Below, piece by piece: positions 36,001 to 42,556 of a stretch of 64,000 nucleotides of DNA. The DNA is from Escherichia coli (GTDB lineage: Bacteria; Pseudomonadota; Gammaproteobacteria; Enterobacterales; Enterobacteriaceae). Position numbers: made by a program. The stretch's first letter is position 1; each line of letters begins with the position of its first letter. The stretch is from assembly GCF_003790525.1 (NCBI RefSeq), contig NZ_CP033635.1. One strand, 5' to 3'.

Positions 36001-39000
36001 GCCAGCGCCTCTGGTTGGGCAAAATAGGGATGCAACTCGACCTGGTTGACCATCGGTTTAACTCTTACCGTTTCACAAAAGTTCGCCAGAACATGAGGGT
36101 AGAAATTGGAAACCCCAATCGCTTTTAATTTGCCCTCTTCATAGGCATCTTCGAGTGCACGCCACGCACTAAAATAATCGCGCATGGCCTGGTGCAATAA
36201 ATAGAGATCGAAGTATTCTAGCCCCGATTTTTTTAATGATGCTTCAATACCTGCTGCTGCAATATCCTGATTCAACATATCCTGCACCCACAATTTAGAC
36301 GTTATAAATAACTCTTCTCGGGTACATAAACCTTCAGATATGGCTTCACGAACGGCTTCACCGACGGCATCTTCATTACCGTATACCGCTGCAGTGTCGA
36401 TGAGTCGATAACCCGTGCGGATAGCATTCAACACTGACTGTTTACACACGTCTTTATCGGTAACCTGAAAAACACCAAATCCCATCATCGGCATTTTCAG
36501 ATTGTTACTTAATACGGAAAATTCCACTGTCAGTCCCTCCATTAGGTATGAACAATGAGTCTACGTTAAAACGTAACCTCAAATTAGTATGTGGATTTTG
36601 ATATCACTTATGCAAAAAATTCATTAATAATGTAGGACTGAAACCTCTCTATTTTTGGGGCAATGAAGCAGACGCTATCAGTGCTTTTGCCTTGGGACTT
36701 GCTGTTTTTGATACACTTAGGGCCCAGGACATAACGAAAATGTGCGATATGACAAAGAATTAACGGAGTATGTGATGATCAGGCAGAAGATTCTACAGCA
36801 GCTCCTGGAGTGGATTGAGTGCAATCTTGAGCACCCTATTTCAATCGAAGATATCGCACAGAAATCTGGCTACAGCAGACGCAACATCCAGCTTCTGTTC
36901 CGAAATTTCATGCATGTGCCTTTGGGAGAATACATTCGCAAACGAAGGCTTTGTCGTGCCGCCATTCTTGTCCGGCTCTCCGCGAAATCTATGCTTGATA
37001 TTGCACTCTCTTTGCATTTTGATTCACAGCAATCATTCAGCCGAGAATTTAAAAAGTTATTCGGCTGCTCTCCCCGTGAATACCGCCACCGTGATTATTG
37101 GGATCTCGCAAATATCTTCCCTTCTTTTTTAATACGTCAACAGCAAAAGACGGAGTGTAGATTAGTCAACTTTCCTGAGACACCTATTTTTGGCAATTCA
37201 TTTAAATATTATATTGAAGTGTCGAATAAATCACCGGATGAAGAAGTCAAACTGCGACGTCATCATTTAGTCAGATGTATGAAGAATTTTAAGACGGATA
37301 TCTATTTCGTCTCCACGTTCGAACCGTCAACAAAATCGGTCGATTTGCTCACAGTTGAAACTTTTGCCGGTACGGTATGCAAAGAAACCGATTCAGAGAT
37401 GTCGAAAGAGTGGACAATTAACCGAGGACTGTATGCCTCTTTCCGCTATGAAGGTGAGTGGGAGCTCTACCCTGAATGGACGCGAAACCTCTATCTGATG
37501 GAATTACCCGCCAGGAGGTTAGCCAGAATGAACGGCAGTGATATTGAGCGATTTTATTACAATGAAGATTTCGTAGAAAAGGATAGCAATGATGTTGTTT
37601 GCGAAATATTTATCCCTGTTCGTCCGGTTTAGTTATCGCTATATCTAAATGAATTTATAACGAGACTACTGTCAGGCAATTCAATAAATAATGGCGTTGA
37701 AGATGTCAACGCCATTATTGTTTATTAGAATGTTACTTTCATACTCTTAATATTATTTCATCGCCTCCTCGCCCGTTGCCGTATTGGCATCCACCGCGGT
37801 AATGGTCACAGTCACTGGTTTCATTTCATACCCTCCATATGTCAAAGAGTTGAATGTGAATGTGTATGTACCTGGCTTGTTGGTACTAAATGTACGCGTG
37901 ATTTTTCCGCTCACGAAATGGTCATTTTTCGACGGCAGGAATTGATAATCCTTCTCCGTCACTCCTTCCGGAGCCTCAATGTCGACCCACACATTCCCCC
38001 CAACAGGGTTATTTGCCGAGAACAGGGTAACCGTCATTGTTGCGGTCTGTACCCCATCCGCCACCAGAGAAGTCACATCAGATGATGCGGCGAGCACCGC
38101 GTTTTTATCATCCGCGACGAATTTAGATTCAGCAGTTTTCGTCGATTCCTGACCGTTGGCCTGTTCCACTTTCGCCGTGAGTGTATATTTCGCCGCGACA
38201 GTGGTCGTGGCGGTGAAAATAGCCTGCCCTTGCTCATTAGTTTTCGCCGTCCCATCGGGATCCAGAGCTAAATTTGCCGGGCTGGCAGTCAGCGTCACCT
38301 CGCTATCTTTCAACAGGTTGTTATTGGCATCAGTCACCGTAACTTTATACGTCTGTTTGGCTTTGCCGTCCGCCAGAGCATAGTTGCCAATCACCTCAAT
38401 ACCGGAGACGGTTGCGGTAGTCTTATCGGCTACAAACGTTATAGTCTGCGCATCCGAAGGCTGGTCATTTCCTGCCGATGCCGTGATCTCATAGGTTCCG
38501 GCAGTCACGGAAACCACCTGCAACTCTGCTTTCCCCTCATCGTTGGCTTTCACCCAGACATTATCGCCTGTAAGCGGCTTGACACCCCGGGGCAGATTAA
38601 AGGTCACCAGGCTCCCTGGAACAGGGTTACCATTTTTATCCTCAACGTTCGCCGTCAGCGTAAAGGCATCTTTGCCGTTTGCCACTTTTTGAGCAGCGGC
38701 GTCTACCTGCAGGTTTGCCTGACCGGTGCTGGCATCCGCGTTGAATTTCACCGTGACCGTCTTCTGAGAGTTTTTCACCGCGGCCGCGATTTCAAGTTCC
38801 CCTGCAACGGTTGATATCAACTCAATATCCGCTTTACCTGCCGCATTGGTTGTTACTGTATTCCCCGTCTTGCTGGTCACACCCTGCGGTAAAGTCAGCG
38901 TAACTTCTTGCCCCTGCAACGGGTTACCATAGGTGTCCACAACGGTCAGGGTTACCTGGTTAGTCGACTGTCCATTTGCCAGCTGGTTATCAACCTTCAC

Positions 39001-42000: not shown

Positions 42001-42556
42001 TGACATTGAGATAATTTCCTGATGAACGAATTAACGAACATAGGCAGACACAAATAATGGCGTCTGCTTGTCAGAAAAACCGGGGATTTCCCGGTTTCCT
42101 TTTCCGCAGAAAAGGAAATACCTTTATGTAAGAAAGTACACCGCCACCTAATATATCCAGTGCCTGGAGCCACTCATCAGGTGGTTGGGCGCGGGATTAT
42201 ATTTTTATTTATGAGTAAAAATTTAGCTTTTTGTGCAAGTCATTAAATAGATACCTAAGTTATATTTCTTACTCTGCGGACAGTGAATAATTCATTATTC
42301 AGAGTGAATAATAATGACCTGCCTTTAATTAGCAACTATTGGAAATACGTCGAAGTAGGTATATACGCCAGGATAAACCAATATATTTTTTATGGATATT
42401 CATTTTCCTTCATCGGACTGTAAATTGCGGGAATATCGAACTTGCACGACTAATCTCAACCCTCAAACAGATTTATGAATTTTGTTCATAACCCCTGACA
42501 AATCCTGCCGTCTAATCGAGCTCTTCCCTTTACGTTATGCTTCTCATGAACGATAA

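Follow-up and report, generated by a model that had tools for sequence, protein, structure and literature searches.

An intact chromosomal fdeC (eaeH) gene, encoding a type Ve inverse autotransporter adhesin, in Escherichia coli SMS-3-5

The fdeC locus and the architecture of its product

The window analyzed here, a stretch of 64,000 nucleotides of Escherichia coli DNA, is 100% identical to the chromosome of E. coli SMS-3-5. On its minus strand, at positions 37753 to 42006, it carries a frame with an ATG start, 1417 codons, and 0 internal stops in the ORF list and on retranslation. The single uninterrupted eaeH frame of 1417 residues described in an earlier note on this DNA is therefore borne out, with neither stop nor frameshift. 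The ORF is identical to the RefSeq CDS fdeC (WP_000092565.1) of SMS-3-5, and the same locus, EcSMS35_0331, is tabulated as fdeC for this strain in Goh 2019 (PMC6714894). We identify it, with a probability of about 95%, as intact chromosomal fdeC (older name eaeH), a type Ve inverse autotransporter adhesin, and no sequence feature speaks against this reading. FdeC has been characterized since 2012, and the finding of an intact copy is correct but ordinary. The gene, the regions of its product, and the element at its 3' end are as follows.

37753..42006, minus strand: fdeC (eaeH) coding sequence, 1417 codons plus stop (ORF list, retranslation, identity to SMS-3-5 fdeC)
41866..42006, minus strand: predicted Sec signal peptide, residues 1 to about 47 (sequence reading, Kyte-Doolittle profile)
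40936..41781, minus strand: inverse-autotransporter β-barrel and linker, residues 76-357 (Pfam and PDB matches)
40585..40935, minus strand: first extracellular Ig-like domain, residues 358-474, equivalent to intimin D00 (PDB 6TQD)
37756..40584, minus strand: nine further Ig-like domains (Invasin_D3/Big_1), residues 475-1417 (tiled Pfam scan)
38983..40224, minus strand: stretch equivalent to the crystallized FdeC fragment, residues 595-1008 (PDB 4E9L)
37687..37719, no strand: hairpin with a perfect 14-bp stem and a 5-nt loop, between the convergent fdeC and AraC-type HTH genes (fold, terminator scan)

Orthology with FdeC is evident both in full-length identity and in chromosomal position. Over 1416-1418 residues, the protein shares 91.5-94.6% of its amino acids with three other alleles (92.2% with ATCC 25922, 94.6% with O157:H7, and 91.5% with ETEC4089); the published identity range for FdeC alleles is over 91% (PMC3324786). 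The neighbors, compared in SMS-3-5, ATCC 25922, O157:H7, ETEC4089, and K-12, are the same in all five: a convergent AraC-type gene plus the rcl operon border fdeC to one side, and reductase genes or ykgR-ykgMO-ecp to the other. The FdeC/EaeH proteins of reference (IHE3034 ECOK1_0290, CFT073, EDL933, and H10407, together with structure 4E9L) all stem from this one gene and chromosomal position; they share their length (1416-1418 residues) and architecture with the SMS-3-5 copy, from which they differ as alleles only.

The N terminus of the protein, as read by eye and from its Kyte-Doolittle profile, begins with a basic N-region, continues into a hydrophobic core (about residues 21 to 44), and has an A-R-A sequence (AXA motif) at residues 45 to 47, from which a Sec signal peptide and its cleavage are predicted. 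The inverse-autotransporter barrel that the earlier note had placed at the N terminus is confirmed by the domain scan and by structural matches. Indeed, Pfam IAT_beta (PF11924) covers residues 76 to 350 (E value of 5.6e-109; 364.5 bits against a cutoff of 22.3; model positions 3-279 of 279), and residues 113 to 357 match the barrels of invasin (4E1T; E value of 3.6e-82) and intimin (4E1S; E value of 8.4e-71). As expected for a type Ve protein, this N-terminal barrel is followed by a C-terminal passenger built of Ig-like (Big) domains, ten in number, spanning residues 358 to 1417, which also agrees with the Ig-like array claimed earlier. The first of them, residues 358 to 474, matches the intimin D00-D0 structure 6TQD (E value of 1.8e-10) and gave no Pfam family at threshold in the tiled scan. 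Among the nine tiles of about 100 residues that cover residues 475 to 1417, all were recognized by Invasin_D3 and eight by Big_1, with best E values per tile from 3.5e-7 to 9e-22. Within this region, residues 595 to 1008 align with positions 1 to 414 of the FdeC chain in 4E9L (E value of 1.1e-241), the fragment whose structure is described in PMC3324786.

At the 3' side of the gene, the earlier note had proposed a perfect bidirectional terminator. Positions 37687 to 37719, taken as RNA, fold with a ΔG of -21.1 kcal/mol (z = -5.4), and 0 of 200 shuffled sequences fold as well. On the plus strand, the 14 pairs (5 of them G-C) are followed by the tail GTTTATTA, with 5 T in 8, enough for the U-tail rule of the scan, whereas the tail on the fdeC strand, UAUUGAAU, contains 4 U among 8 positions and falls short of that rule. 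The hairpin is kept in O157, ATCC 25922, and ETEC4089 with only G-U-compatible changes, and its flanks diverge. Hence the 14-bp hairpin is real and conserved, and its plus-strand tail suits the convergent HTH gene, but the symmetry implied by the proposal is weaker than stated. From its sequence, this element is likely a shared intrinsic terminator of fdeC and the AraC-type HTH gene; given the shortfall of the U-tail on the fdeC side, termination of fdeC itself at this site is putative.

Relationship to intimin, invasin, and other inverse autotransporters

The homology of the barrel with its counterparts in intimin and invasin, together with an alignment of the NCBIfam model intimin_all over residues 62 to 463, could suggest that the gene encodes a true intimin (Eae) or invasin orthologue, with a lectin-like domain at its C terminus for the binding of Tir or integrins. 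FdeC does share with the intimin of EPEC and EHEC the type Ve organization, a homologous 12-stranded barrel (4E1S), the first Ig domain (6TQD), and a passenger of Big domains. However, the intimin_all alignment is limited to those residues and scores 372.5 bits, far under the cutoff of 1400. Moreover, intimin is distinguished by LysM at its N terminus, a passenger of just four Big domains, and a Tir-binding tip of the C-type lectin-like kind, none of which was found in FdeC: neither Pfam at an E value of ≤0.01 nor the tiled scan at an E value of ≤1 detected LysM, Intimin_C, or lectin domains. In the AlphaFold model of residues 1199 to 1417, the last domain is all β (pLDDT of about 90), and the PDB folds that best fit this modeled tip come from tandem Ig domains in intimin, invasin, InvD, and InvE, not from a lectin domain; the FdeC tip is thus predicted to be an Ig-like β-sandwich lacking a lectin domain. 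The fdeC locus also lies outside any LEE island.

Similarly, FdeC shares with the invasin of Yersinia pseudotuberculosis (InvA) and with InvD and InvE a homologous barrel (4E1T) and Ig domains of the Invasin_D3 type (1CWV, 5LDY). Invasin has five extracellular domains, of which D4-D5 form an integrin-binding superdomain with a lectin-like D5, whereas FdeC has ten Ig-like domains and no lectin-like tip, and other alleles of it bind collagen (PMC3324786). 1CWV aligns with FdeC through Ig domains only (residues 1006-1139), without a counterpart of the D4-D5 superdomain of invasin and its lectin-like D5. Membership in the intimin or invasin groups is ruled out by the NCBIfam cutoffs and by the missing LysM and lectin domains, and we see next to no chance that the protein is an orthologue of either.

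The identification as FdeC also separates the gene from the other inverse autotransporters of the species; SMS-3-5 carries all six, FdeC included (PMC6714894). YeeJ and IatA-D belong to the same family and have the same general layout but are encoded at different loci, and YeeJ further differs in its LysM domain and its length of 2359 residues. The NCBIfam IatC and Ilp N-terminal models align to the barrel region of FdeC, all scoring far below cutoff (630 versus 2400 for IatC).

By homology with these systems, the Sec signal peptide would take FdeC to the periplasm, the N-terminal barrel (about residues 76-357) would insert into the outer membrane, and the C-terminal passenger would thread out through the barrel and fold into a rod of ten Ig-like domains. 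The FdeC of CFT073 has been described as a 150-kDa surface protein with 10 Big domains, whose assembly is enhanced by the TAM; its insertion into the outer membrane and the surface exposure of its passenger were demonstrated with protease shaving and tamA mutants (PMC4943183). In experiments, orthologous alleles, including that of IHE3034, mediated attachment to epithelial cells and to collagens I, III, V, and VI and promoted aggregation and biofilm formation (PMC3324786). By analogy with such published work, the SMS-3-5 protein may be displayed on the surface, assembled with the help of the TAM, and similar in its ligands and regulation.

Allelic variation, deletions, and the length of the Ig-domain array

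What remains of the gene in K-12 is a 5' fragment of 876 bp adjoining IS3. Since IS3 stands there in place of 3,695 bp, the lesion is an IS3-associated deletion of about 3.7 kb rather than a simple insertion; the earlier note had correctly described an IS3-disrupted fragment but understated the loss. With this K-12 truncation, the barrel, the Ig-like array, and a predicted signal sequence, the core reading of eaeH in that note is right.

Of 5426 complete E. coli genomes, 4585 contain at least 80% of fdeC. The SMS-3-5 allele itself is uncommon: among 5082 matching records, 25 reach ≥99% identity. Between the alleles compared, indels are of 1 amino acid only, and divergence is unevenly spread: residues 1101 to 1150 are 100% identical to O157, 74% to ATCC 25922, and 62% to ETEC4089, and the last 17 residues differ. 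The SMS-3-5 allele is one of many FdeC variants and has a mosaic distal part; variability is greatest in the distal domains, whereas the barrel is conserved. Since these domains are in places just 62-84% identical to those of other alleles, ligand specificity could differ.

The earlier note had also regarded the array as a likely site of recombinational length variation. Indeed, a passenger of about ten Ig-like modules of similar size might constitute a contingency locus, in which recombination between repeats changes the number of domains and hence the length of the adhesin. The mapping of repeat units at the DNA level, by TRF, direct-repeat search, and exact k-mers, yielded nothing above chance. 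TRF found no tandem repeats in the array, the longest direct repeat in fdeC is 55 nt at 73% identity, and the longest exact one is 12 nt, about the level expected by chance for 4.2 kb; exact k-mer repeats above chance were likewise absent from four alleles. RecA-dependent recombination in E. coli needs roughly 20-30 bp of identity, far above these 12 nt. The Ig domains are also weakly similar to one another as proteins. Across strains, the full-length copies among 60 genomes sampled evenly across the match ranking measure 4249-4258 bp, a constant length.

Occasional internal deletions do exist, namely, one of 665 bp in CH4796, one of 2.3 kb in 52F4, and one of about 500 residues in L008, a relative at 80% identity, and the CH4796 junction falls at roughly equivalent positions of two domains, as inter-repeat recombination would have it. 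Yet such shorter forms are rare, every deletion examined breaks the frame and is annotated as a pseudogene, and the junctions of two E. coli deletion variants show imperfect microhomology only. Existing variation in fdeC consists of allelic mosaicism and point divergence. Length variation by recombination is not borne out, and a contingency locus, which we consider largely refuted, is very improbable.

The 5' leader, expression, and selection

Upstream of the start codon, the following elements were delineated.

42007..42201, minus strand: conserved fdeC 5' region (fold, conservation, compensatory changes)
42196-42201, minus strand: perfect TATAAT of the fdeC leader
42096-42117, minus strand: leader hairpin 1 (predicted fold)
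42079-42095, minus strand: leader hairpin 2 (predicted fold), followed by a U-run at 42075-42079
42044-42067, minus strand: leader hairpin 3 (predicted fold)
42071-42078, minus strand: U-tract, with predicted pairing to the Shine-Dalgarno (SD) region at 42015-42022

The leader folds with a ΔG of -64.9 kcal/mol (z = -4.7). In the predicted structure, UUUUCUGA of the U-tract pairs with UCAGGAAA of the SD region, and the probability of the SD being unpaired is 0.01-0.1 in a 151-nt construct starting just upstream of hairpin 1; the predicted opening of this helix from 25 to 45°C is small. The leader is single copy, and about 5,030 E. coli genomes carry it at 95-100% identity. Relative to other E. 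coli alleles, it differs at 1-2.5% of its positions, compared with 5-25% of the synonymous sites in the adjacent barrel. Hairpins 1, 2, and 3 each show one compensatory pair in more distant Escherichia, among nine sequences that came partly from a homologue search with the N-terminal 480 residues and, in the contig pattern scan, from three species representatives only, which limits the power of the covariation analysis. The SD helix is invariant across the compared leaders and hence provides no covariation evidence. In a Salmonella relative (60% identity), the leader is not homologous.

An Rfam scan of positions 37500 to 42700 at an E value of ≤1 gave no match, which puts both the leader and the 3' hairpin outside the curated RNA families. 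A REP-like dispersed repeat was considered as an identity for the leader hairpins and ruled out, as they occur once in the window and at a median of one place per genome. The K-12 RNA 3'-end data (Adams 2021 supplements) hold no entry for eaeH, ykgR, or b0297; with a locus that is probably silent in that strain, this absence carries no information.

We tentatively propose, as a rather doubtful possibility, that this leader of about 185 nt (42007-42201), whose transcript would start from the conserved TATAAT and comprise three hairpins and a U-tract on the SD, may be an undescribed cis-regulatory RNA. In the predicted fold, hairpin 2 and the U-run after it resemble an intrinsic terminator or attenuator, and the U-tract/SD pairing within 42007-42189 is suggestive of fourU thermometers. 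A function of the leader RNA would be in keeping with its conservation and fold. The leader observation may be new, and it is the sole element of the locus that might repay further work.

The earlier note had proposed that the protein should be expressible as a surface adhesin. The frame is intact, but published FdeC is undetectable in standard culture and is induced by contact with host cells (PMC3324786). According to PMC11143625, which cites Easton 2014, it is also induced at 39°C or above and is regulated by H-NS. The region upstream of fdeC is AT rich (35.5% GC), and with the reported H-NS silencing, this means that an intact frame is no guarantee of expression. If the other alleles are a guide, the gene would normally be silenced, and contact with host cells or a high temperature would activate it.

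This silence and the AT-rich upstream region would also fit an intact but silent relic on its way to loss, with no current function in SMS-3-5. Several independent inactivations (the K-12 IS3 deletion, CH4796, 52F4, L008, and L010) point in the same direction, as do the approximately 15% of complete E. coli genomes without at least 80% of fdeC. However, dN/dS rises from 0.02-0.08 in the barrel through 0.10-0.16 in the proximal Ig domains to 0.30-0.38 in the distal ones and so stays well under 1 throughout, despite a high synonymous divergence (dS of 0.16-0.23), which argues for long-term purifying selection. Furthermore, most genomes, whatever their phylogroup, carry an intact copy, the leader of the gene is more conserved than synonymous sites, and fdeC mutants of other strains have colonization phenotypes (PMC3324786, PMC11143625). 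We therefore hold a silent relic to be a very unlikely state of the gene in SMS-3-5.

Because FdeC is an adhesin with broad conservation in E. coli and has been published as a vaccine antigen, the record of an intact allele in SMS-3-5 is useful for annotation, although it adds nothing new, since most E. coli strains carry fdeC intact and the SMS-3-5 copy was already tabulated. What is useful here is corrective and negative: the array of Ig domains is no contingency locus for repeat number, and an intact frame does not imply expression. The diversity of FdeC lies instead in old mosaic alleles, concentrated in the distal domains, and is relevant to vaccine coverage. If the proposal for the leader is true, it could represent the post-transcriptional layer that underlies the puzzling appearance of FdeC solely upon contact with host cells or from 39°C upward.

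Gene integrity and the K-12 lesion

The frame at window positions 37753-42006 (minus strand) starts with ATG and runs for 1,417 codons, with no internal stops on retranslation. The interval 37600-42300 matches the E. coli SMS-3-5 chromosome (NC_010498.1) at 100% identity, and RefSeq there labels exactly the same coding sequence fdeC, "inverse autotransporter adhesin FdeC" (WP_000092565.1). Retranslation and the RefSeq entry bear out the coordinates, length and strand that the earlier note gave under the older gene name, eaeH, as well as its main interpretation of an intact, full-length gene. 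The gene is already known and ordinary, EcSMS35_0331 having been tabulated as fdeC among the SMS-3-5 inverse autotransporters (Goh et al. 2019, PMC6714894). Table 1 of that paper gives its size as 4,245 bp and 1,415 aa, versus 4,254 bp and 1,417 aa in the sequence and RefSeq. Since there is no alternative start near codon 3, the mismatch probably reflects digits transposed in print and not another choice of start.

Of 5426 complete E. coli genomes, 4585 have a place that covers at least 80% of fdeC, so an intact copy is the norm and K-12 departs from it. Homology between K-12 and the window extends over 36512-37435, gives way to IS3, and resumes over 41131-42557. The 3,695 bp in between (37436-41130) are replaced by IS3, at 4752-6000 of the K-12 locus, L002. 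Lost with them are the 3′-terminal ~197 bp of the convergent AraC-type gene (ykgA), the hairpin between the two genes, and 3,378 bp of fdeC, of which an 876-bp 5′ fragment remains. Hence, K-12 eaeH is an IS3-disrupted fragment, as had been noted, but the lesion is an IS3-associated deletion truncating two genes and not a simple insertion. The K-12 gene had already been called a shorter pseudogene matching the N-terminal region (Nesta et al. 2012, PMC3324786).

Gene content upstream of fdeC (42572-44439 and beyond) varies by lineage, as seen in the loci of K-12, ETEC4089 (L005), and a further comparison locus (L001). Two aldo/keto reductase genes and LysR regulators lie there in SMS-3-5, ATCC 25922 and, partly decayed, O157. 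In K-12 and ETEC4089, the fdeC side runs straight to ykgR-ykgMO-ecp, with a reductase remnant of only 90 nt, and the downstream aldo/keto reductase (35658-36542) is reduced to 129 nt.

Domain architecture and allelic variation

Domain scans and structural matches assign the following regions of the protein.

Residues 76-350: IAT_beta barrel (Pfam, full-length match, E 5.6e-109)
Residues 113-357: structural match to the solved barrels of invasin (4E1T) and intimin (4E1S)
Residues 358-474: first Ig-like domain (intimin D00-D0 structure, 6TQD)
Residues 595-1008: equivalent of the FdeC crystal fragment (4E9L, E 1.1e-241)

Pfam also reported several Invasin_D3 and Big_1 stretches. When residues 475-1417 were scanned in pieces of ~100 residues, Invasin_D3 was found in all nine tiles and Big_1 in eight. 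The N-terminal inverse-autotransporter barrel and the Ig-like array proposed earlier are both present. The Ig-like domains total ten, the count given by Heinz et al. 2016 (PMC4943183). The last tile scored slightly under the Pfam cut-off; residues 1199-1417 were therefore modelled, giving with confidence an all-beta sandwich as the final domain (pLDDT about 90). This tip model best matched tandem Ig domains (intimin, invasin, InvD, and InvE); no lectin-like fold was among its best matches, and neither LysM nor Intimin_C was reported by the whole-protein or tiled scans. By inspection, a long Sec signal peptide is predicted at the N terminus, which has the expected basic region, a hydrophobic core (~21-44), and A-R-A at 45-47.

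Compared with other phylogroups, nucleotide identity is 95-99% in the barrel and 90-93% in the passenger. For the flanking genes the figure is 93.6-99.9% (97-99.9% against ATCC 25922 and O157), and for the 565-bp intergenic region upstream it is 95-97%. Synonymous divergence over the whole of fdeC (0.16-0.23) is several-fold greater than in neighbouring genes (0.005-0.06), and dN/dS rises from 0.02-0.08 in the barrel to 0.10-0.16 in the proximal and 0.30-0.38 in the distal Ig domains. Over residues 1101-1150, identity is 100% with the O157 allele, 74% with that of ATCC 25922, and 62% with that of ETEC4089; the last 17 residues are strongly divergent and differ between phylogroups. The variable, mosaic part of the gene corresponds to the distal Ig-like domains (37753-38950, residues ~1020-1417). 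Such a pattern is the mark of old alleles reassorted through homologous exchange, the exposed tip being under relaxed or diversifying pressure. It agrees both with published conservation maps (PMC4943183) and with a count of hundreds of FdeC variants (Aleksandrowicz et al. 2024, PMC11143625).

Repeat-driven length variation of the Ig-like array, held likely in the earlier note, is not supported. Tandem Repeats Finder (TRF) detected no tandem repeat in the array, its sole hit within the gene being a 19-bp hexamer run, and among dispersed direct repeats the best extends over 55 nt with 73% identity. RecA-dependent recombination needs roughly 20-30 bp of identity; the longest exact repeats, 12 nt in the SMS-3-5 gene and no more than 16 nt in three further alleles, fall well below this and are near chance level for 4.2 kb. 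The domains are only weakly similar to each other as protein. Length is constant: the full-length matches among 60 strains, sampled evenly down the ranking, all span 4249-4258 bp, and the four alleles compared in detail (1416-1418 aa) are separated by single-residue indels. Nor are the shorter variants in-register domain losses. Strains CH4796 (an out-of-frame 665-bp deletion) and 52F4 (a 2.3-kb deletion) have imperfect microhomology at the junction and are annotated as pseudogenes, and in a syntenic relative (L008, barrel 80% identical) the counterpart of residues 521-1019 is absent and the junction carries a frameshift.

The stretch missing from L008 is equivalent to five Ig domains. L008 (3001-5752, GCA_051411795.1) and another relative, L010 (949-5301, barrel 91% identical), are both split by frameshifts into several ORFs, reflecting further independent decay of fdeC or, for the Logan contig, assembly errors.

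The 3′ hairpin and a putative 5′ leader

Between the convergent fdeC and AraC-type genes lies a conserved hairpin.

37687-37719: perfect 14-bp stem with a 5-nt loop

Folded as RNA, it has a dG of -21.1 kcal/mol (z = -5.4). It is kept in O157, ATCC 25922, and ETEC4089 with solely G-U-compatible changes, while the intergenic surroundings diverge. The perfect hairpin stands. As to the bidirectional terminator proposed earlier, the scan's U-tail rule accepts the plus-strand tail only, and the fdeC-strand tail has 4 U in 8; that the hairpin terminates transcription both ways is therefore a plausible inference. A second inverted repeat of ~15 bp adjoins the shared hairpin on the HTH-gene side in ETEC4089 (L005 ~6830-6875) and ATCC 25922 (L003 ~6825-6870), and several paired differences between the two preserve the stem. 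SMS-3-5 and O157 have its left half alone (37640-37680, with a 14-nt gap in alignment A5).

The putative leader, the 190 nt 5′ of the fdeC ATG (within 42007-42201), contains the following elements, all on the minus strand.

42196-42201: perfect TATAAT
42096-42117: hairpin 1
42079-42095: hairpin 2, followed by UUUUU; terminator-like, sense orientation
42044-42067: hairpin 3
42071-42078 with 42015-42022: predicted helix between a U-tract and the Shine-Dalgarno (SD) region

Hairpin 2 reads in sense, yet every gene further upstream is divergently oriented. The leader fold has a dG of -64.9 kcal/mol (z = -4.7), with little melting predicted over 25-45 C. When a 151-nt construct beginning immediately 5′ of hairpin 1 is folded at 25-45 C, P(unpaired) for the SD is 0.01-0.1; the SD is less sequestered in the full 221-nt construct (up to about 0.37). 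Present in a single copy, the leader has 95-100% identity across about 5,030 genomes; alleles differ at 1-2.5% of its positions, and their barrels at 5-25% of synonymous sites. Across nine sequences, including more distant Escherichia (E. whittamii, Escherichia sp. E1V33, a divergent E. coli lineage, and the 80% relative), hairpins 1-3 each show one compensatory pair. Pairs changed on both sides number 5 versus 2.1 ± 1.2 in shuffles, 13 of 500 of which reach the observed value, and paired cells make up 96.5% versus about 44% with slid partners. The SD-sequestering helices are uninformative, because they are invariant across the compared leaders. Rfam returned no match for the leader, our literature search found no paper linking fdeC to a leader RNA, and K-12 3′-end maps have no entry for the locus. 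We regard the leader as a lead and not a finding; it could act as an attenuator or a fourU-like thermosensor.

Expression and proposed export

The frame is intact, but this alone does not mean that FdeC is produced, and the earlier expectation of expressibility must be set against published work. FdeC was not detected in culture and was seen only on bacteria contacting host cells (Nesta et al., PMC3324786). Temperature-dependent induction was reported (Aleksandrowicz et al., PMC11143625), and both detection only at 39 C or above and control by H-NS in EHEC are attributed there to Easton et al. 2014. The GC content of 42100-42499 (35.5%) is consistent with silencing.

Only the architecture is observed here; for the SMS-3-5 allele, the remaining steps are proposed from homology and published experiments on other alleles. 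FdeC would first be exported by Sec, and its barrel would then be inserted in the outer membrane with the help of BAM and TAM. The C-terminal passenger, exported in a hairpin-type manner, would form a rod of ten Ig-like domains that may bind epithelial cells and collagens I, III, V, and VI and promote aggregation (PMC3324786, PMC4943183).
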